NCBI GenBank assembly: GCA_017621525.1
Contig: JAGASX010000014.1
Span: 13,232 to 77,231 of the forward strand
Source of the DNA: Clostridia bacterium
Lineage (GTDB): Bacteria > Bacillota > Clostridia > Christensenellales > UBA1242
DNA length: 64,000 bases
Direction of reading: 5' to 3'
Shown here: positions 3,935-56,325 of the stretch, piece by piece
How the letters are laid out: the number at the start of each line of letters is the position of its first letter
Numbering within the stretch: the first letter of the stretch is position 1
Position numbers and translations under genes: made by a program
Notes under the pieces: generated by a model
What the model was told of the DNA's origin: nothing
Database searches by the model: none
Seen by the model: the letters and a program-made list of their open reading frames with translations, nothing else

Positions 3935-4246
3935 TGTCGCACCTGCGTTGACAACCAGCCCCCTCGTCGAGGGGGCTGGCAACCTGTATGGGTTGACAGG
4001 GGGACAATTAAGTGAAAAGTGAAGAGTGAAAAGTGAAAAGGTAAGACGCCCCGCTTCGCGCCAAAAGCGACCTGCGCCCGCTTTTGACGCTCCGCTTATA
4101 AGGTTGGATATTATAAAAAACCTATCGAGGAGGCAGACACTCAATTTAGAGTGGGGGTGTTCAAATAAGTGTAAAGTGAAAAGTGAAAAGGTAAGCCTGC
4201 CCCGCTTCGCACGCTCGGCGACAACTCCGCCATCGCTTGGAGACGA
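3935..4246 (+). repeat. Mosaic of GC-rich modules (D fragment, E1, B1, C1, B1', C-like)
   Basis: D fragment GTGTCGCACCTGCGTTGAC 3935-3953; E1 3957-4005; purine heptads B1 4006-4045 and B1' 4167-4195; C1 with stem CAAAAGCG (4062-4069) / CGCTTTTG (4079-4086). Each has homologues at 28.2, 39.4, 42.3 and 55.5 kb. Confidence 0.9.
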
Positions 4247-28140: not shown

Positions 28141-28560
28141 AAGCACCCCCGCGGACTTGCAACCCGCGGGGACGCTTTTTTACGTCGCACCCGCGTTGAC
28201 CTTCGACCAACGCAGACGCTTCCGCCCCGCTCCGCTAAATCAGTTTGAATTAAACAAGCCCCCTCGTTGAGGGGGCTGTCGGCAAAGCCGACTGGGGGAG
28301 TTGAATTAAGTGAAAAGTTAATAGTGAAAAGTGAAAAGGTGTGCCCCGCTCCGCACGCTTGGCGAGTGGTGCCCGCCTTGCACGCTTCGCTAAATAAGAT
28401 TTATTAAACGCCCGTTGTTAGTCATTCGCATACCGCACCGCACTAAAAGCGACAATAATCCTCCTCGCCGAAGGGCTGTCAACCCGCATGGTTTGACTGT
28501 GGGAGTTTACACTTTTGTCGCCTTTCAGACAACTCCCTCCGCCCGGCGTTCAACATAGAT
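28141..28560 (+). repeat. Mosaic of GC-rich modules downstream of rplS (F1, D2, E2, B2, C-like and further GC-rich hairpins)
   Basis: F1 stem CCCCGCGG (28147-28154), loop ACTTGCAAC, stem CCGCGGGG (28164-28171) plus T-run. D2 stem 28191-28198 / 28208-28215. E2 28256-28300. B2 28301-28343. Confidence 0.9.
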
Positions 28561-38889: not shown

Positions 38890-38928
38890 AACGACCTCCC
38901 TTATAGAGGGAGAATACCACTTTATTTC

Positions 38929-38979
38929 GCCTTCCCCTTTGGCCGTAGGAAGGTGGCTCGAAGAGCCGGAAGAGGCTCA
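38929..38979 (+). repeat. Type-A two-hairpin module, copy A1
   Basis: GCCTTCCCCTTTGGCCGTAGGAAGGTG-GCTCGAAGAGC-CGGAAGAGGCTCA. Confidence 0.95.
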
Positions 38980-39062
38980 TTGTGGAACAAACAAAATTGA
39001 AGATTTAAAAAATCTTAACGATAGTCGTCCAGCGTAAGGCTGGCGGAAGAAGGATTTTTTAT
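38980..39062 (+). promoter_or_regulatory. Module G copy 1: portable 5' UTR ending in an SD and ATG
   Basis: TTGTGGAACAAACAAAA...CTTAACGATAGTCGTCCAGCGTAAGGCTGGCGGAAGAAGGA is homologous to 42569-42649. The ATG positions coincide (39063 here, 42650 there). Confidence 0.75.
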
Positions 39063-39282: not shown

Positions 39283-39347
39283 AAGCCTTCCCTTGGGGGA
39301 AGGTGGCTCGAAGAGCCGGAAGAGGGATAATACGCCCTCTTTTTTTG
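39283..39347 (+). repeat. Type-A module copy A5 whose trailer doubles as an intrinsic terminator stem
   Basis: AAGCCTTCCCTTGGGGGAAGGTG-GCTCGAAGAGC-CGGAAGAGGG, then AGAGGG-ataatacg-CCCTCT plus T7 (39320-39347). Confidence 0.9.
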
Positions 39348-39600
39348 TCGCACCTGCGTTGACCTTGCGACCAACGCAGACGCTCCCGCCCCGCCAGCCC
39401 GCTCCGCTTATAAGGTTGAAATAAAAAAATACAAGTGTTTGTCGACAAATTTGATTATGTAGTTGAATTAAGTAAAAAGTGATAAGTGAAAAAGGTAACT
39501 CCGCCCCGCTTCGCACCAAAAGCGACCTACGCCCGCTTTTGACGCTCCGCTAAATAGGCGTCGCACGCTTGGCGACCAACGTCCGCCTCGCCCGCCCCAA
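39348..39600 (+). repeat. Mosaic D3 - B3 - C3 - GC-rich tail
   Basis: D3 has stem CTGCGTTG (39354-39361) / CAACGCAG (39372-39379), with GTCGCA/TGCGAC interleaved. B3 39463-39499. C3 stem 39517-39524 / 39534-39541. Confidence 0.9.
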
Positions 39601-39679: not shown

Positions 39680-39752
39680 AAGCCTTCCCCGCACGCGGGG
39701 AAGGTGGCTCGAAGAGCCAGAAGGGGGAAACCTCCATCTTTGAGGGAGGTGG
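39680..39752 (+). repeat. Type-A module copy A6 plus CCTCC/GGGAGG hairpin inside the 5' leader of the LRR gene
   Basis: AAGCCTTCCCCGCACGCGGGGAAGGTG-GCTCGAAGAGC-CAGAAGGGGG (39680-39727), then CCTCC-atctttga-GGGAGG. The gene's SD GGAAGGAG lies at about 39770-39777. Confidence 0.9.
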
Positions 39753-41616: not shown

Positions 41617-41787
41617 TGAGCCTCTTCCGCCAACCTGGGGAGGCACCAAACAAGTTTAGCGCGGGCACGGCAGAGATAAACTCGTGCCTAACCGCTACTT
41701 GTTCGGTTCCCCGTCCCAATCTCCCTCCCTCATAAGGACGCACTTACGTGCGATTGACTTGCACCTTCCCCGGTTTCGGGGAAGGCA
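41617..41787 (-). repeat. Type-A module copy A13 (inverted) with a roughly 125-nt insertion (module H2) at the hairpin-2 position
   Basis: On the minus strand it reads AAGCCTTCCCCGAAACCGGGGAAGGTG-[insert]-GCGGAAGAGGCTCA. Insert 41636-41730 is homologous to 900-1000 (CGCGGGCACG...CTAACCGCTA...TCGGTT.CCC..CCCAAT..CCCT). Confidence 0.85.
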
Positions 41788-41814
41788 AGAACCTAAGGAA
41801 GATTTTTTATAATA

Positions 41815-41845: not shown

Positions 41846-42124
41846 ATGTTCAAGGTCGGGCATCTCGGGTTGATAGAGTTTTACCAACTGCCTCGTGTGT
41901 ATTACGCTCCACCAAAGCCACCTTATGGCACACCAAAAGGTCCTTTTAATGATGCTCCCGTCAGGGCCTGACATGGTTCAAGGGTTTTGATTGCATAAGA
42001 CCTTGATTTCATCACGCAAAGCACACGCACATTTTTGACAAAACTAAACCGCGCCGAGCATTCAACCCCACATATAGCGGATTGTGGGTACAGAGCACCG
42101 CTAACTCTCCGTTTAGCCCGATAT
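41846..42124 (-). ncRNA. ffs: Signal recognition particle RNA, long Bacillus-type (scRNA) with Alu domain
   Basis: The minus strand reads ...GGAGAGTTAGCGGTGCTCTGTACCCACAATCCGCT... (Alu domain, compare B. subtilis GGGGAGGTAGCGGTGCCCTGTACCTGCAATCCGCT). It also reads GAACCATGTCAGGCCCTGACGGGAGCATCATTAA (domain IV, compare GAACCATGTCAGGTCCGGAAGGAAGCAGCATTAA). 5' TCGGGC pairs with 3' GCCCGA. Promoter is TTGCAA-17-TATCAT just upstream. Confidence 0.88.
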
Positions 42125-42295: not shown

Positions 42296-42568
42296 AAGCC
42301 TTCCCTTGGGGGAAGGTGTCGCCTTGGCGACGGAAGAGGGACAACTTTAAGTGAAGAGTGAAAAGTGAAGAGTGAAAAGGTGAGCACGCTCCGCTAAACA
42401 AGTTAAGCCTTCCCCTTTGGCCGTAGGAAGGTGCCCGCAGGGCGGAAGAGGCTCATACAAAAGCCTTCCCTTGGGGGAAGGTGTCGCCTTGGCGACGGAA
42501 GAGGGACAACTTCAAGTGAAGAGTGAAAAGTGAAAAGGTAAGTCCGTTGGACTTGCGGAAGAGGCTCA
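42296..42568 (+). repeat. Array A2-B4-(C-like)-A3-A4-B5 of GC-rich modules
   Basis: A2 42296-42340 and A4 42461-42505 are identical (hairpin 2 TCGCC-tt-GGCGA). A3 42405-42455 is identical to A7 at 55579. B4 42341-42384. B5 42506-42542. The 9-nt CGGAAGAGG is duplicated at 42496-42504 and 42556-42564. Confidence 0.95.
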
Positions 42569-42649
42569 TGGTGGAACAAATAAAAATAGAAAATTTAGAA
42601 AAGACTAACGATAGTCGCCCAGCGTAAGGCTGGTAAGAAGGAAATATTT
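42569..42649 (+). promoter_or_regulatory. Module G copy 2: 5' UTR/SD immediately upstream of the HEPN-CBS gene
   Basis: TGGTGGAACAAATAAAA...GACTAACGATAGTCGCCCAGCGTAAGGCTGGTAAGAAGGAAATATTT then ATG. Homologous to 38980-39062. Confidence 0.75.
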
Positions 42650-43381
42650 ATGGCAGACAAAACACAAAAAACAAATTCAAAAAGATTTTTGGACGCATAC
42701 AACAGCATTGACTATGCACTTAAAACAAGGTATGGCTTAAACAGAGCTATGGGCTTTTCTGACCTTATCCGCAAAAGCGTTGTCAACAATTACGTAGTGC
42801 GTAAATATGAAGATGACCTTATCGATTTTGGCAGACTTCGCAATGCCATTGTGCATAACAGCAATGAAAATTTTGTAATTGCCGAGCCTCATGATGAGGT
42901 TGTTGCCCAAATAGAGCACATTGAAAAACTGCTTACCACTCCACCAAAGGTGTTGGATACTGTTGGACAACGCGATGTTCTCACTTCACAGGCAGGCAAA
43001 AGCATGAGGGAAATTATCACCCTTATGTCATCATCAAATTACAGCAACATTCCAATTTACCGTGGGCAAGACCTTTTGGGCATTGCCAATGGTCAAAAAA
43101 TTATCAACTCTTTTGGTCAATATCTGCTTGCAGGGGGCAAAGCCGATGTTTTTCTTGACCATGTGCAAATTGAAGATATGCTTTCTTCCCTTGCCAACAG
43201 CATATATTATGTTGTAAAGCGTGCCGACTGCACAATTGAAGAGGCGCTTAATGAATTTAACAACAACCACAAACTTCTTGCCATACTTTTCACCAAAAAC
43301 GGCACTTCAAATGAATTGCCTGTGGGGATTATGACAGGTGCAAACTTTGTTGACGCACAAAATGTGCTTGAAAACTATTAA
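42650..43381 (+). CDS. HEPN-like (RNxxxH) domain fused to a CBS pair
   Basis: The N-terminal about 95 aa are helical with FGRLRNAIVHN (the R-N-x3-H HEPN signature). The C-terminus has two CBS motifs (MREIITLMSSSNYSNIPIYRGQDLLGIANGQKII; IEEALNEFNNNHKLLAILFTKNGTSNELPVGIMTGANFV). Confidence 0.7.
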   Translation: MADKTQKTNSKRFLDAYNSIDYALKTRYGLNRAMGFSDLIRKSVVNNYVVRKYEDDLIDFGRLRNAIVHNSNENFVIAEPHDEVVAQIEHIEKLLTTPPKVLDTVGQRDVLTSQAGKSMREIITLMSSSNYSNIPIYRGQDLLGIANGQKIINSFGQYLLAGGKADVFLDHVQIEDMLSSLANSIYYVVKRADCTIEEALNEFNNNHKLLAILFTKNGTSNELPVGIMTGANFVDAQNVLENY

Positions 43382-52728: not shown

Positions 52729-52757
52729 AAAAAAACTCCCACTCGGGAGTTTTTTTA
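52729..52757. terminator. Bidirectional intrinsic terminator
   Basis: CTCCC-actc-GGGAG flanked by A7/T7. Confidence 0.8.
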
Positions 52758-53465
52758 TTCCACAATCACCACATCGCCGTCGCGAGAATAACTTTCACCA
52801 AGATAGTCAAGTTCTTGCATCGCGTAAGAAGAAAGGTGTATTTTTACTAAATTACAATCGGGGTACTCTTTCGCAAGTCCCACAACCTCACCAACACAAA
52901 GGTGCTTTTGCGTTACTTCTACGCCCGCGGTGTCAATAAAACAAACCTTTGCTTTCTTTAAAATTTTATGCAAGTTGTTGCACATGGCGGTGTCGCCGGT
53001 AAAGCCAACCTTATTTCCGCCCTCATCAATCAAAAAGCCGTAACTGTCAAGGCTTCCATGCAACATTTTAAAACATTTAAAAGAATATTTGCCCAATTTC
53101 AATTTTTTGCCATTTTCACATTCAATAAAGGTTACAAATTCTTCAAGATGAGGCAAAAGATGTGAAAGTTCAAACAACCTAAACATGGCTTGAACTCGCT
53201 GTGCACAACCCTTTGGCGCAAGTATTGTTAATTTGCGTTTAGGAAAGTGCCTGAAAATATAGTCCAAAACAATATGCAAATCGGCAAAGTGGTCGCTGTG
53301 GAAGTGGGATATAACAATTGTGCTTATTTTGTCAAAACCATAATCTAAATACAAGGTTTTAAAAGAGCCCTGCGGTACGTCAAACAAAATTTCATCATTT
53401 ATAATATAACTTGTAGAAAGTTCCCGCGTCCAAGTGCAACCAGAGCCTACAATTTGAATTTTCAT
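52755..53465 (-). CDS. MBL-fold metallo-hydrolase (RNase Z/BN-like)
   Basis: ISHFHSDHFADL (HxHxDH), later TGDT and KIHLS motifs. Confidence 0.8.
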   Translation of the reverse strand: MKIQIVGSGCTWTRELSTSYIINDEILFDVPQGSFKTLYLDYGFDKISTIVISHFHSDHFADLHIVLDYIFRHFPKRKLTILAPKGCAQRVQAMFRLFELSHLLPHLEEFVTFIECENGKKLKLGKYSFKCFKMLHGSLDSYGFLIDEGGNKVGFTGDTAMCNNLHKILKKAKVCFIDTAGVEVTQKHLCVGEVVGLAKEYPDCNLVKIHLSSYAMQELDYLGESYSRDGDVVIVE

Positions 53466-55041: not shown

Positions 55042-55402
55042 TGCCATATTAAACAACTTTAAGGATATCGCTGGCGACAACCTTAAAAAAATTTCACCTC
55101 ATAAATACCTTGTTACCTTTCCTATTATGCTTGTAGAAAACTTTGACAGCCTGCCTGTGTACCTTGTCAACCTTGATGAAGAGGCATATTTGGCAGACTA
55201 CGGCAAAACGCTGGAAAGCATGGAAGTTGCCTTTGATGACCTTAAACCACAACTGAAAGAATATATATCAAATAAACTTAAATTTCTTGGCGTTGAATTT
55301 GATGGACAATCAATGATGATGCCAATAAAAGAAAACAATGAAAGACTTTGCCTATCACTTTTTGTTATGGCAATCTCATTCTTGCAAACTGTTTGCTTAT
55401 AA
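55031..55402 (+). CDS. Hypothetical 123-aa protein, translationally coupled to the 488-aa gene (DUF1828-like pattern suspected)
   Basis: GGGAGGAAG RBS inside the upstream gene, with an 11-nt overlap. YLVTFPIMLVENFDSLPVYLVNLDEEAYLADYGKTLESM resembles the DUF1828 layout. Confidence 0.6.
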   Translation: MKFDAILNNFKDIAGDNLKKISPHKYLVTFPIMLVENFDSLPVYLVNLDEEAYLADYGKTLESMEVAFDDLKPQLKEYISNKLKFLGVEFDGQSMMMPIKENNERLCLSLFVMAISFLQTVCL

Positions 55403-55407
55403 ATAAA

Positions 55408-55560
55408 AGCACCCCTGTCGACCGCTGACCGACAGGGACGCTTTTTTTTGTGGAAGTGGGACGAAACACCGCCGACGACTTGCAACCGTCGGCGACGTTT
55501 TTTTTGTGTCGCCCGCTCGGCGACCGCTGACCGCCTCGCCCGCTCCGCTTATAAGGTTGG
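55408..55560 (+). repeat. Cluster of three GC hairpins with conserved 9-nt loops (F0, F2, h9) plus a C-module tail
   Basis: F0: CCCTGTCG (55413-55420) - ACCGCTGAC - CGACAGGG (55430-55437) plus T8. F2: CGCCGACG (55470-55477) - ACTTGCAAC - CGTCGGCG (55487-55494) plus T8. h9: GGCG (55519-55522) - ACCGCTGAC - CGCC (55532-55535). Tail CGCTCCGCTTATAAGGTTGGA as at 4088 and 39409. Confidence 0.9.
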
Positions 55561-55578
55561 AAATAAAAAAAACACTAA

Positions 55579-55777
55579 AAGCCTTCCCCTTTGGCCGTAG
55601 GAAGGTGCCCGCAGGGCGGAAGAGGCTCAATTTTTGAAAACAAAAACAAATCAAGCCTTCCCCTTTAGCCGTAGGAAGGTGTCGCGTAGCGACGGAAGAG
55701 GCTCAATTATTTAAAACAAAAACAAATCAAGCCTTCCCCGAAACCGGGGAAGGTGCCCGAAGGGCGGAAGAGGCTCA
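55579..55777 (+). repeat. Tandem triplet of type-A modules (A7, A8, A9) with conserved 23-nt A-rich linkers
   Basis: A7 55579-55629 (hairpin 2 GCCC-gca-GGGC). A8 55653-55705 (TCGC-gta-GCGA). A9 55729-55777 (GCCC-gaa-GGGC). Linkers are ATTTTTGAAAACAAAAACAAATC and ATTATTTAAAACAAAAACAAATC. Confidence 0.97.
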
Positions 55778-55784
55778 AAAAAAC

Positions 55785-55813
55785 TTGCAATTTAATTTAG
55801 AATTATATAAAAT
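55785..55813 (+). promoter_or_regulatory. Promoter of the DUF559 gene. Geometry implies a leaderless or near-leaderless mRNA.
   Basis: TTGCAA (55785-55790), 17 nt, TAAAAT (55808-55813). The ATG at 55820 is only 6 nt downstream and has no SD. Confidence 0.5.
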
Positions 55814-55819
55814 AAAGTT

Positions 55820-56173
55820 ATGAAAACGCCGAATAAAAAACTTACGCCAAATGCTCAAATATTGCGGAAAAATATGACAAAAGAAGAAAGACATTTATGG
55901 TATGATTTTTTGTCAACTTATCCTATACAATTTAAAAGACAAAAGGTTGTAGGCAGGTATATTGCAGATTTCTTTTGCCCGAAAGCCAAAATTATAATTG
56001 AAATTGACGGCTCTCAACATTTTAGTGAAGATGGATTGCAGTATGATAAAGAGAGAACGGACTTTCTTAATAAATTTGGAATTATGGTTATAAGATTAAC
56101 AAATATTGATATAAATCAAAGGTTTAGGTCATCATGTGAATTTATTGATTTAAAAGTTAAAGAGAGGTTATGA
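55820..56173 (+). CDS. DUF559 (Vsr-like/PD-(D/E)xK fold) endonuclease-domain protein
   Basis: LTPNAQILRKNMTKEERHLWYDFL...FKRQKVVGRYIADFFCPKAKIIIEIDGSQH...DKERTDFLNKFGIMVIRLTN is the typical DUF559 layout. It is visibly more AT-rich, with TTA/ATA/AGA codons that are uncommon in neighbouring genes. Confidence 0.85.
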   Translation: MKTPNKKLTPNAQILRKNMTKEERHLWYDFLSTYPIQFKRQKVVGRYIADFFCPKAKIIIEIDGSQHFSEDGLQYDKERTDFLNKFGIMVIRLTNIDINQRFRSSCEFIDLKVKERL

Positions 56174-56230
56174 GCCTCTTTCGTCATTCGCTAACGCTCA
56201 TGCCACCTTCCCCGGTTTCGGGGAAGGCTT
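56171..56230 (-). repeat. Type-A module copy A10, inverted. It begins at the DUF559 stop codon.
   Basis: TGAGCCTCTTTCGTCATTCGCTAACGCTCATGCCACCTTCCCCGGTTTCGGGGAAGGCTT is the reverse complement of AAGCCTTCCCCGAAACCGGGGAAGGTG-[21 nt]-GAAAGAGGCTCA. Hairpin 1 is identical to A9. Confidence 0.93.
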
Positions 56231-56325
56231 TTTATTGAAATCCTAAACCTTATCATGCTTCCTGCGAGCCCGCGGGGAGTGTCGCCAAAGGCGACGAGAG
56301 GTGTCATCAAAATTCCTTACATATT

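Follow-up and report, generated by a model that had tools for sequence, protein, structure and literature searches.

Between positions 55820 and 56173 of the window, by which we mean the whole stretch of 64,000 nt that was analysed, the forward (+) strand carries a gene for a 117-aa nuclease of the DUF559 family (Vsr fold, PD-(D/E)XK), assigned by Pfam, PDB, and fold matches. It is preceded by three tandem forward copies of a repeat termed the type-A module, namely A7 (55579..55629, +, 34.8 bits with a covariance model), A8 (55653..55705, +, 39.2 bits), and A9 (55729..55777, +, 40.2 bits), and it is followed by the inverted copy A10 (56171..56230, -, 40.7 bits). A9 and A10 are the left and right terminal modules. 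The sequence-only reading had placed the gene exactly between inverted modules with an identical hairpin 1, and both statements hold: A9 ends at 55777, the outer tail of A10 (TGAGCCTC) overlaps the stop codon with TGA (56171-56173) as the first three bases of the module, and hairpin 1 reads CCTTCCCCGAAACCGGGGAAGG in A9 and A10 alike. A9 is composed of the pyrimidine block CCTTCCCC, a loop, the purine block GGGGAAGG, TG, hairpin 2, and the tail CGGAAGAGGCTCA; its 3' end reads ...GGAAGAGGCTCA. Hairpin 2 of A10 is unusual (GTCATTCGCTAACGCTCATGCC) and is conserved in the related locus L002. The interior between both modules spans 393 bp, is AT-rich and, as had likewise been stated, unlike its neighbours in composition, with a GC content of the gene of 29% (window: 38%) and a GC3 of 24% (neighbouring genes: 27-37%).

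A promoter-like site (TTGCAA-17-TAAAAT, 55785..55813, +), recognised by its match to the consensus alone, lies between A9 and the gene. Since its -10 box ends 6 nt upstream of the ATG and no Shine-Dalgarno sequence was found before this start codon (55820), the predicted mRNA is probably leaderless; the consensus scans are thus consistent with the private promoter and leaderless transcript proposed earlier. By eye, the same geometry of -35 box, 17 nt, -10 box, 6 nt, and ATG is repeated in loci L002 and L003. At the opposite end, hairpin 1 of A10, a 9-bp stem followed by CTTTTTATTG (56206..56237, +), scores as an intrinsic terminator in a consensus scan of the + strand. Besides being a terminal inverted repeat, as designated earlier, A10 is likely to serve as the terminator of the DUF559 gene and belongs to a right end that is conserved between the window's unit and its two closest relatives (blastn). 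Similarity to L002 begins within A9, at 55746, and the blastn alignments run past A10 to 56246 (L002) and 56254 (L003); this short alignable flank (56231..56254, +) may mark the outer edge of the unit in this sub-clade.

The 117-aa product matches the Pfam family DUF559 (PF04480) with E=1.1e-26 and 93.2 bits (cut-off 20.6). DUF559 is the only domain that Pfam finds in it, with no recognised transposase domain. Due to a score of 65.5 bits (E=4.5e-18) against NCBIfam PRK09767, below the equivalog cut-off of 218, the protein is not regarded as an orthologue of E. coli YcjD. PDB entry 3hrl is matched with E=8e-13, and an AlphaFold2 model (pLDDT 75), compared by Foldseek, resembles 3hrl, 3r3p (I-Bth0305I), and 1vsr (Vsr). 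The similarity to I-Bth0305I is at the level of the fold only (E=6.4e-4, TM 0.69/0.80, 20% identity) and that to Vsr is weak (E=0.2); RAP-like mitoribosomal proteins are also among the top fold matches. The catalytic pattern D...E-x-D-G-x-x-H...D is present, and D50, E61, D63, G64, H67, D76, and R79 are invariant in an alignment of 34 homologues. Judged from a dN/dS of 0.13-0.19 and from these residues, the gene is under purifying selection and its predicted catalytic site is intact. More than 5,800 sequence clusters match the query at E up to 1e-10.

Type A is the commonest intergenic repeat of the window, with 12 observed occurrences of its core motif versus 0.75 expected. The covariance model covers hairpin 1 alone, since MAFFT failed to align hairpin 2 in register; with this model, 12 full copies were found, of which 11 are on the + strand and only A10 is on the - strand, as well as one interrupted copy. 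Apart from A7 to A10, the full copies are solo modules on the + strand at 38927..38979, 39283..39327 (tail variant GGAAGAGGGA), 39680..39728 (divergent tail), 42296..42343 (tail GGAAGAGGGACA, a variant also present in L002 and L003), 42405..42455, 42461..42508 (tail GGGACA), 59037..59085 (followed by an extra hairpin 2 and tail repeat), and 59125..59173. The interrupted copy (41617..41790, -), situated immediately downstream of the SRP RNA gene, carries a 122-nt insert in place of hairpin 2. A 5'-truncated module (42538..42568, +) retains only hairpin 2 and the GGAAGAGGCTCA tail. A second variant, with the order GCCCCCTC, loop, GAGGGGGC, hairpin 2, and (A/T)GGGGGA, shares the type-A grammar and occurs at 3957..4010 (+) and 28256..28305 (+); it is referred to below as the CCCCC/GGGGG variant. 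According to our own reading of the gene tables and covariance matches, all 11 forward modules are oriented as their neighbouring genes. The 1.5-kb spacer around the DUF559 gene (55403-56897) is crowded with several repeat families.

Modules are approximately 50 nt long, start with AAGCC, and contain two hairpins, the second loop consisting of TG, a hairpin of 11-25 nt, and C. Compared to the first purine block, the second matches better as a mirror than as a direct repeat in 165 of 186 distinct combinations. A known structured RNA as identity of the module was ruled out by an Rfam search, which returned no family at the gathering score nor at E up to 10. On the module-sense strand, stem mismatches comprise 30 G-T and 10 A-C in an even-handed count (44 versus 2 by another method; a value of 42 versus 2 stems from a scoring scheme favouring G-T), which is modest evidence for a sense-strand bias. 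For 359 of 365 modules, the folding energy of the whole module is more favourable on the sense strand, a figure confounded by G-richness. Considering all loci, solo modules between co-directional genes occur 26 times in sense and 12 times in antisense, a bias so mild that it decides neither for an RNA-level nor for a DNA-level role.

The arrangement is not peculiar to the window. The closest homologues of the protein, P0002 (77% identity) and P0003 (73%), are encoded in unrelated gene neighbourhoods, and both genes show the order forward module, promoter, ORF, and inverted module, hairpin 2 of the latter having the same unusual form as in A10. That further DUF559 copies might be flanked by modules had been raised from the sequence, and the same inverted layout is indeed seen within the lineage and in about 160 distant relatives. 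Pooling 160 further loci, a forward module is located upstream in 114 of 157 and an inverted module over the 3' end of the ORF in 117 of 155, i.e., the layout is present in approximately 70% or more of the loci versus <1% expected. The two samples agree: among 82 genome loci, 56/80 have a forward module at most 120 nt upstream and 63/81 an inverted one at the 3' end (background 0.073 modules per kb), and among 80 independent metagenome loci the values are 58/77 and 54/74, respectively (background 0.021 per kb). These percentages are lower bounds, since nhmmer, which was used for counting, misses some copies. The loci are phylogenetically related and therefore do not represent independent events. 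The association spans relatives at 53-100% protein identity. A metagenome scan for closer relatives of the window's gene revealed nothing above 62% identity, and the promoter-bearing sub-clade is thus represented by three loci only.

In most relatives, a GGAGG of the left tail is located 5-8 nt before the ATG, and in lineage after lineage the stop codon overlaps the right module. Start signals and C-terminal codons of the ORF are built into the modules. The two ends of a unit also match each other: left and right tails are identical at 11.23 of 14 positions, compared to a maximum of 11.04 in 1000 permutations, and the minority variants GATGAGGTG and GAGGGATTCC are each paired with themselves across the unit ends. 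By eye, the same holds for GAGGCTCA in the window and for GGAAGAGGGAC in L002 and L003. Some left and right tails differ as GGGGTTG versus CAATCCC, a combination which in RNA would keep a G-U pair.

Copies resemble each other from approximately 55-60 nt upstream of the ATG to 24-28 nt past the stop codon, that is, up to the outer ends of the modules, and this delimits a unit of about 450 bp. Within a single metagenome-assembled genome, L056 and L065 share 86% identity over 456 bp only. Another pair, L052 and L079, shares 98% over 622 bp within 20-kb loci that are otherwise unalignable. A search of 32 cleanly bounded units gave no target-site duplication, as their flanks read AAA | unit | TTT with no direct repeat. 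In addition, 31 doublets of a forward followed by an inverted module without ORF were detected, with spacers of 11-78 nt; the L065 doublet retains approximately the first 15 nt and the last 3 nt of the ORF. Solo modules are nearly absent from many of the genomes that contain a full unit.

In one gut species, the same locus carries 1-2 tandem units and 1-3 modules, depending on the strain. An exact-sequence look-up of the widespread homologue P0099 returned ten places, all of which represent one locus of one species, and showed copy-number variation rather than transposition. In L010 and L035, the unit occupies a syntenic site in two species, which indicates vertical inheritance of some units. 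Locus L165 belongs to the assembly in which P0003 is encoded at another place. It is collinear with the window (85-93% nucleotide identity) but lacks the cassette: 156 bp occur in place of the 1.26 kb comprising A7-A9, the DUF559 gene, and A10, and this cassette-free site is occupied by a CCCCC/GGGGG module. A clean empty site with exact element ends was not found in this comparison, the difference between the window and L165 being a composite 1.26-kb indel that includes other repeats.

A recurrent, strongly non-random architecture, discrete unit ends, paralogues within one genome, copy-number variation between strains, absence of the cassette from a syntenic site, and purifying selection on an intact catalytic site are the observations to be explained. 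We favour the explanation, with a probability of roughly 60%, that the DUF559 gene together with A9 and A10 (approximately 55729-56250) represents a single copy of a miniature selfish element that is widespread and resembles an insertion sequence. The other type-A copies of the window are best read as ORF-less singlets of the same family. In this unit of about 450-520 bp, each terminal inverted repeat of about 50 bp comprises a pyrimidine block and a complementary purine block forming hairpin 1, a variable hairpin 2 of conserved pairing, and a second purine block mirroring the first. The space between the repeats is taken by the gene for a Vsr-fold nuclease of 117-124 aa, with the translation start abutting the left repeat and the last codons and stop lying in the right one; the window's sub-clade has added a private promoter instead, and the ORF-less doublets elsewhere would be internal-deletion derivatives of full units. 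It is tempting to speculate that the nuclease recognises either the folded module or the junction between two tails and nicks or cuts there, upon which the unit, or only its ORF, would be copied by host recombination and repair from one module-bearing site to another. Spread would then resemble homing-like gene conversion and unequal recombination rather than classical transposition. A point against the element is that inserting DNA at new sites is beyond the capacity of a 117-aa nuclease acting alone. Further points against it are that neither a target-site duplication nor a clean empty site was found, that solo modules are scarce in many genomes with a full unit, that some units were apparently inherited vertically, and that BoxC, which is discussed below, persists in E. 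coli without ycjD and accompanies enterobacterial copies clearly at one end only. The sequence-only reading had compared the nuclease to the enzyme of a REP/RAYT pair. This logic is supported in its architectural part, because DUF559 copies are flanked by inverted modules with co-varying ends, and the bracketed layout and the ORF-less doublets and singlets fit it as well; as for its enzymatic part, we infer that the nuclease acts on the modules, i.e., that it may bind, cut, spread, and maintain them.

Several of these features could also be accounted for if the modules were merely the gene's own expression signals and DUF559 an ordinary host nuclease, e.g., of repair or defence. The left module would then be a structured 5' leader with a Shine-Dalgarno sequence, as the GGAGG 5-8 nt before most start codons suggests, and the right one a terminator, in agreement with a hairpin followed by a T-run on the gene's strand. 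The complementary tails would pair and close the mRNA, which would limit translation of a toxic nuclease, and the solo copies would be left over from decay or owe their spread to something else. The GGGGTTG/CAATCCC pairs and the excess of G-T over A-C in module-sense stems (under either way of counting) point in the same direction. However, the promoter of the window's sub-clade is located downstream of the left module, ahead of the ATG, which places this module outside the mRNA, and yet the module was retained. Moreover, paralogues bounded as units, ORF-less doublets, dozens of solo copies at unrelated genes, and tandem arrays are left unexplained. Watson-Crick pairing gives no role to the mirror-repeat purine blocks, and RNA reportedly does not form purine-motif triplexes (PMC4666352). 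We thus consider regulation in cis an unlikely explanation. A role on the RNA level, with DUF559 as an RNA-binding protein or RNase acting on module transcripts and the solo modules as a post-transcriptional regulon, has a precedent in the RAP-domain proteins of organelles, which possess the same fold, and draws on the RAP-like fold matches, the G-T bias in stems, and the co-orientation of all 11 forward modules of the window with neighbouring genes. Across all loci, though, this orientation bias is mild, the right terminal module runs antisense to the mRNA of the gene itself, and the catalytic motif is that of the DNA nucleases Vsr and I-Bth0305I, which makes such a partnership very improbable.

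The gene might instead be a passenger that was captured once by an independent repeat family of the REP, MITE, or BoxC-like kind, whose movement would depend on an unlinked enzyme or on recombination; the composite would have been carried along ever since. In favour of this, solo modules outnumber DUF559 genes in the window by 12 or more to 1, BoxC persists in E. coli without ycjD, and Holder et al. found neither an associated gene nor a mobility function near BoxC repeats (PMC4666352). A single capture is difficult to reconcile with an association that is maintained over the full range of protein identities, for a number of module variants whose two ends match, and also in Enterobacteriaceae, where the module sequence differs. 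It is equally at odds with start signals and C-terminal codons built into the modules, and with purifying selection on the gene wherever it travels; as an impression from the gene tables, no other gene family recurs between modules at the 160-plus loci. We regard the passenger scenario as unlikely, too. Finally, a small gene could by coincidence have fallen into a repeat-rich intergenic region, for which the packed 1.5-kb spacer would offer the opportunity. The excess over the <1% expected and the repeated overlap of stop codon and module reduce the likelihood of this to almost nil, and chance juxtaposition was rejected on the recurrence in 82 genome and 80 metagenome loci. The selfish element remains our preferred reading.

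BoxC or PIT-type repeats, reportedly first noted by Bergler around 1992 and the subject of repeated study, show a comparable association. In the sampled genera Enterobacter, Klebsiella, Phytobacter, and Franconibacter, a YcjD-type ORF has its 3' end within a perfect inverted BoxC, and ycjD of E. coli ends in a degenerate one. In enterobacterial YcjD-type copies, a clear module is recognised only at the 3' end. Approximately 38% of the complete E. coli genomes are without ycjD, and in at least one of these genomes (H42) the BoxC stretch of the query still finds a match; BoxC repeats therefore need no ycjD to persist. The E. coli sapF-fabI locus was dismissed as a clean empty site, as it is a replacement hotspot (eefRABCD versus ycjD). 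It is conceivable, although we rate it somewhat below even odds, that small DUF559 nucleases of the YcjD type are the hitherto unrecognised protein partners of BoxC/PIT-type repeats in Firmicutes and Enterobacteriaceae and form with them a second symbiosis of the REP/RAYT kind, based on a Vsr-fold PD-(D/E)XK enzyme.

Our literature search found no paper linking DUF559 to any repeat family; the nearest point is that DUF559 genes are enriched, for unexplained reasons, in a set of predicted inversion targets (PMC9881135). The architecture ties this family physically to BoxC-type repeats in Clostridia and five enterobacterial genera, so that two questions, the function of DUF559 and the origin of BoxC, become one, i.e., whether the nuclease binds or cuts the flanking module. 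If the proposed relation is true, it would provide a function for a very large family that includes E. coli YcjD and an origin for BoxC/PIT repeats. The full units of approximately 450 bp would then be smaller than any autonomous bacterial mobile DNA known to us. A nuclease binding or cutting the module would constitute a new enzyme class among the proteins that maintain intragenomic repeat populations and would make very small, structured, nuclease-addressable DNA modules available. If it does not act on the module, a clean and previously undescribed case is left of a gene with start and stop signals in an inverted repeat pair.

Compared to known systems, the likeness to the very-short-patch repair endonuclease Vsr (1vsr) is a distant one of fold and catalytic motif; unlike Vsr, the DUF559 gene has no adjacent cytosine methyltransferase, and a role in mismatch repair is without support. 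With insertion sequences and MITEs, the unit shares terminal inverted repeats that bound a discrete unit, internal-deletion derivatives, and copies in different contexts, even within one genome, and with insertion sequences also a start signal for expression in the left end and a stop codon in the right end. Insertion sequences have transposase folds (DDE, HUH, serine/tyrosine recombinase), whereas the DUF559 unit has none, lacks target-site duplications (32 units), and commonly occurs in tandem arrays. IS200 measures about 0.7 kb, and at approximately 450 bp the DUF559 unit is smaller than familiar insertion sequences.

I-Bth0305I (EDxHD family, PDB 3r3p) has the catalytic fold in common with DUF559 (TM 0.69/0.80). 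As in free-standing homing endonuclease genes, a small selfish nuclease gene would spread by its nuclease and host repair, and it splits a palindromic junction, which is GGAGGGATTG | CAATCCCTC in most relatives and GAGGCTCA | TGAGCCTC in the window; ORF-less doublets would be possible recipient sites of a putative cleavage. Unlike homing endonuclease genes, the DUF559 gene is situated outside of an intron or intein, its product has no evident N-terminal DNA-binding extension, and its putative target is a dispersed repeat instead of a unique gene site. Doublet spacers of 11-78 nt fit poorly to a fixed cleavage site.

In REP/RAYT systems, too, inverted copies of a short, GC-rich repeat with the capacity to form hairpins enclose a nuclease gene, the repeat is also dispersed in the same genome as intergenic singlets and inverted doublets, stems are kept by compensatory change, and some copies are inherited vertically. 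The likeness rests on this layout, with the activity of the nuclease on type-A repeats being putative. The RAYT enzyme is an HUH Y1 transposase (IS200/IS605-like) and not a Vsr-fold PD-(D/E)XK nuclease of about 120 aa, and REPs are imperfect palindromes of 20-40 nt with a GTAG or CGTC head, whereas type-A modules, of approximately 50 nt, have neither head and consist of two hairpins and a mirror purine block. In contrast to REP/RAYT, the DUF559 ORF overlaps the repeats, and several full copies per genome are possible.

The closest parallel in grammar is found in BoxC/PIT/TM_ECO (Hoyne 2000; Holder 2015, PMC4666352), with its order of pyrimidine block, loop, purine block, loop, and mirror purine block. 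The two families are unrelated at the nucleotide level, the match in grammar is one of sequence, and a type-A triplex is putative. TM motifs are defined with loops of 1-6 nt (ITxF), with N3 between the purine blocks in the TM_ECO consensus, whereas the second loop of type A holds an extra hairpin of 11-25 nt (122 nt in 41617-41790). Despite these differences, both share the three-block grammar, an intergenic position, hypervariable loci, and an occurrence as singles or inverted doublets of two subtypes (A+B in BoxC, left-type and right-type here), and in both a DUF559 gene, of the YcjD type in enterobacteria, ends inside an inverted copy of the repeat.

The sole long ORF within 55403-56897 is located at 55820-56173 (+) and encodes a 117-aa protein with a Pfam DUF559 match (E=1.1e-26), similarity to the N. 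gonorrhoeae DUF559 structure 3hrl (E=8e-13) and a match to the YcjD-type NCBIfam model with a score under the equivalog cut-off. Upstream of the ORF, three type-A modules (intergenic repeats of two hairpins and a purine tail) are arranged in tandem: A7 (55579-55629, +), A8 (55653-55705, +) and A9 (55729-55777, +), the last with the 3' end GGAAGAGGCTCA. Downstream, the inverted module A10 (56171-56230, -) begins with TGAGCCTC on the TGA stop codon, and its hairpin 1 is identical to that of A9. This bracketing had been described in the sequence-only reading and is confirmed in the sequence. Its claim of an own promoter without Shine-Dalgarno sequence is consistent with a consensus scan, which identified the promoter-like TTGCAA-17-TAAAAT at 55785-55813, 6 nt before the ATG, and no Shine-Dalgarno sequence before this ATG, and hairpin 1 of A10 followed by CTTTTTATTG scores as a terminator on the strand of the gene. 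The GC content of the gene is 29%, compared to 38% for the window. In the window, the covariance model recovered 12 full modules, 11 of them on the plus strand and A10 alone on the minus strand, as well as an interrupted one (41617-41790, -) with hairpin 2 replaced by 122 nt; the core motif occurs 12 times versus 0.75 expected.

D50, E61, D63, G64, H67, D76, R79, R92, and N95 are invariant across 34 homologues, and dN/dS of the gene is 0.13-0.19. In structure comparison, the AlphaFold2 model of the window protein (pLDDT 75) matches 3hrl, PvuRts1I, Vsr, RAP-like mitoribosomal proteins, and the catalytic domain of the homing endonuclease I-Bth0305I (TM 0.69/0.80). The protein is an intact, selected, minimal predicted nuclease domain; no additional DNA-binding domain is obvious in it.

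An identical protein is recorded solely from the window's own scaffold, a 178-kb MAG contig. The closest homologues, P0002 (77% identity) and P0003 (73%), stem from two other Clostridia MAGs, the former flanked by genes for a DUF6273 protein and a PrmC-like methyltransferase, the latter adjacent to a Fic gene and phage-like genes. Both show the order forward module, conserved promoter (6-nt gap to the ATG), ORF and inverted module, the last including the unusual second hairpin of the window, GTCATTCGCTA(A/C)CGCTCATGCC. In distant relatives (80 loci of species-representative genomes with 53-64% identity, from Oscillospiraceae, Acutalibacteraceae, Ruminococcus, Christensenellaceae, Ructibacterium, and others), the left end reads AAGCCTCCCTTGTGTAAAGGGAGG-TG-[variable hairpin]-C-GGAGGGATTG, followed after 2-6 nt by the ATG. 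The right end reads CAATCCCTC-AGTCAGCTTCGCTGAC-AGCTCCCTTTACACAAGGGAGCC in the direction of the gene; it is an inverted copy of the left-end module and encodes the last codons (QSLSQLR) as well as the TGA stop. The window's type-A module is alignable to these modules column for column.

The sequence-only reading had proposed the nuclease as the partner of the type-A family, and other DUF559 copies are indeed flanked by modules. With a profile built from the module alignment, a forward module was found at most 120 nt upstream in 56/80 genome loci, an inverted one at the 3' end in 63/81 and both in 45, compared to a background of 76 modules in 1.03 Mb (0.073 per kb) more than 300 nt away. In a second, independent set of 80 metagenome loci the corresponding values are 58/77, 54/74 and 48, with a background of 0.021 per kb. 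Since the loci share ancestry, these counts do not represent independent events, but despite this kinship the enrichment at DUF559 genes is around hundred-fold or more, and the module-framed layout is more than a local accident. Clostridia-type units, i.e., the ORF with its left and right modules, are also present on contigs assigned to bins of other phyla, namely L011 and L062 (Anaerolineae-labelled MAGs, both canonical), L013 (Coriobacteriaceae) and L030 (Bacilli), due to either horizontal transfer or binning error.

In an all-against-all nucleotide comparison, similarity between copies begins 55-60 nt before the ATG and ends 24-28 nt after the stop, where the two modules have their outer edges. 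L056 and L065 of one MAG are 86% identical over 456 bp, L074 and L081 91% over 462 bp, and L052 and L079 98% over 622 bp, and in each case the rest of the loci is unalignable. L010 and L035 are syntenic along the whole locus, thus units can also pass down in place. Units are 441-471 bp long, preceded by AAA and followed by TTT, and no target-site duplication was found at these flanks. Between the two ends, the inner tails co-vary more than in any of 1000 permutations: the minority variants GATGAGGTG and GAGGGATTCC each pair with themselves across the ends, and by eye the tail is matched at both ends in the window (GAGGCTCA) and in the loci of P0002 and P0003 (GGAAGAGGGAC). In most units, hairpin 1 carries a compensated swap, left CCTCCC/GGGAGG versus right GCTCCC/GGGAGC. 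This establishes the DUF559 gene and its two modules as a discrete unit, whereas the mechanism discussed below is a proposal.

Doublets, forward-then-inverted module pairs without ORF, are common (31 counted, spacers of 11-78 nt). The doublet at 1975-2096 of L065 shares its unusual left module with the full unit 1 kb away, and its spacer retains approximately 15 nt from the start of the ORF and the final 3 nt; it is thus an internal-deletion derivative. Immediately upstream of the full unit of L010, two tandem 200-bp doublet units are situated that are absent from the syntenic L035. Within one gut species, ten metagenome samples carry 1-2 tandem gene units and 1-3 inverted modules at a single locus. 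L165 is syntenic to the window on both sides of the cassette site (85-93% nucleotide identity), with 156 bp and one module of another variant instead of the window's 1.26 kb comprising A7-A9, DUF559, A10, and further repeats. As P0003 is located on another contig of the same assembly, two closely related genomes hold DUF559 cassettes at different places. Synonymous divergence of the window gene from P0002 or P0003 is 1.3-1.5 against the similar syntenic flanks, which we take to mean that they represent separate lineages of the unit rather than one relocated orthologue. Dense doublet arrays with a period of approximately 165-300 bp occur in L033 (4100-5700 and 9170-9790) and in L030, with 23 module hits in 14.8 kb, the repeat-richest locus seen.

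Further repeats accompany the modules of the window. Pieces resembling another module variant (GGGAGGGAGATTG; GCCTCCCCAGG) occur in the 122-nt insert (41645-41766, -) of the interrupted module, a possible case of a module lodged within another's hairpin-2 loop; hairpin 2 of L071 contains a similar, smaller insertion. This module is located just downstream of a bacterial large SRP RNA gene (41856-42121, -; Rfam RF01854, 167.9 bits). Downstream of A10, a tandem duplication of approximately 209 bp (56336-56365 / 56545-56574; 56431-56456 / 56640-56665) has in each of its units a GC-rich terminator-like hairpin (GTGGGGTTCCGGGGGAATCGCAACCCCCGG) and an AT-rich palindrome (CCCATACCTTTTAAATAAAAGGTAAC), a family distinct from the modules. 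Another family ends in CGCTCCGCTTATAAGGTTG or CGCTCCGCTAAA after GC-rich segments (4088-4106, 39400-39418, 55541-55559, 28228-28239, 39543-39554, and 42387-42398). It tends to follow a module, as do short tandem repeats of GTGAAGAGTGAAAAG (4019-4040, 4176-4190, 28324-28338, 42351-42379, and 42516-42537), and therefore the intergenic repeats of the window make up BIME-like mosaics. A stretch of approximately 85 nt after the type-A tail (...GGTGGAACAAA...AACGATAGTCGNCCAGCGTAAGGCTGG...GAAGAAGGA) is conserved at 38968-39060 and 42557-42650, each time immediately ahead of a start codon; it may represent a common leader or regulatory element and has no Rfam match at gathering score. Tandem terminator-like hairpins (55407-55442 and 55464-55505) follow the gene ending at 55402; L165 has a single copy, to which the second hairpin aligns at 97.6%, and the first falls inside the main syntenic alignment to that same L165 segment. 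Also present are a tRNA-Gly (CCC) gene (61136-61209, +) and a metallo-beta-lactamase-fold gene (52755-53465, -) with Pfam matches to Anti-Pycsar_Apyc1 (PF23023), adjoining two conserved hypothetical genes of 488 aa, with only 46 homologues at E up to 1e-20, and 123-129 aa.

No Rfam family matches the modules. Hairpin 2 varies freely in sequence with pairing retained (678 Watson-Crick pairs in 112 distinct versions), and on the module-sense strand G-T pairs exceed A-C pairs (30 versus 10 in an even-handed count), an excess whose size is method-dependent. Across variants, the block after hairpin 2 mirrors, rather than directly repeats, the 3' arm of hairpin 1 in 165/186 distinct combinations, e.g., GGGAGG / GGAGGG, GAGGGGG / GGGGGAG, and GGGGAAGG / GGAAGAGG. 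Mirror repeats cannot form Watson-Crick pairs. The succession of pyrimidine, purine and mirror purine blocks is a potential intrastrand triplex grammar. This grammar describes the BoxC / PIT / TM_ECO repeats of E. coli, with the consensus CCCTCNCCC-N3-6-GGGNGAGGG-N3-GGGNGAGGG; K-12 has 23 copies at hypervariable loci, five of them inverted doublets that always combine two subtypes; in vitro, the single strand folds into a triplex, and mobility genes were never found nearby (PMC4666352).

The link between DUF559 and modules also reaches the Enterobacteriaceae. The DUF559 gene of E. coli K-12, ycjD, has its final codons and its stop within a degenerate inverted BoxC, and TM_ECO number 9 is situated 154 nt downstream. 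Between both, a fragment duplicating the ycjD 3' end (ggagacggtgctggagaatatt...; L084 5290-5370, about 1,351,290-1,351,370) appears to be what is left of a second DUF559 unit. All four YcjD homologues sampled (Enterobacter, Klebsiella, Phytobacter, and Franconibacter) terminate within a perfect inverted type-B BoxC, ...CCCTCACCCCGGCCCTCTCCC-TGA-AAGGGAGAGGG, encoding ...PSPRPSP. Except for Franconibacter with a degenerate one only, a forward type-A BoxC with full consensus follows within approximately 230 nt. Two are located upstream of a DUF2884 gene; otherwise the neighbours differ among the four loci. No clear module was found upstream of these four genes. YcjD homologues at L178, L188, and L189 share CTGGCAGAGT, purine-rich on either side, a few nt before the start codon, which may be a decayed left module. 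In E. coli, ycjD is present in 3378/5426 complete genomes, and among those lacking it, at least H42 still matches the query along its BoxC stretch. According to a recent paper, ycjD sits in place of the eefRABCD operon (PMC12817139).

We consider it somewhat probable (about 0.6) that the DUF559 gene and its modules form a selfish unit. A lone nuclease is unable to integrate DNA. For this reason, and because the nearest characterised fold relative is a homing endonuclease and the variation observed takes the form of tandem expansion, internal deletion, and gains or losses among sites that bear modules, we favour a mechanism in which the nuclease initiates copying and host repair carries it out. 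The protein would nick or cut a folded module or the palindromic tail junction, and recombination with another module-bearing site would then copy the ORF or the whole unit. Alternatively, the modules may serve the gene as its expression signals, the gene may travel as a passenger, or the protein may target RNA. In the sub-clade of the window, however, the promoter is located within the unit, 3' of the left module, and the module is still retained, which argues for modules acting at the DNA level rather than in mRNA.

A literature search, whose coverage is incomplete so that absence is not proof, revealed no published link between DUF559 and a repeat family; in the nearest report, DUF559 genes are enriched, without explanation, among predicted inversion targets (PMC9881135). 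The window modules share the pyrimidine / purine / mirror-purine grammar of BoxC, but their second loop holds a whole hairpin and they depart from one formal criterion of that class. With its start signal in the left repeat, stop codon in the right repeat, deletion derivatives and varied contexts, the unit resembles an insertion sequence, although it lacks a target-site duplication. As a nuclease gene framed by an inverted dispersed hairpin repeat that also occurs as doublets and singlets it resembles the REP/RAYT system, but its enzyme belongs to neither class.
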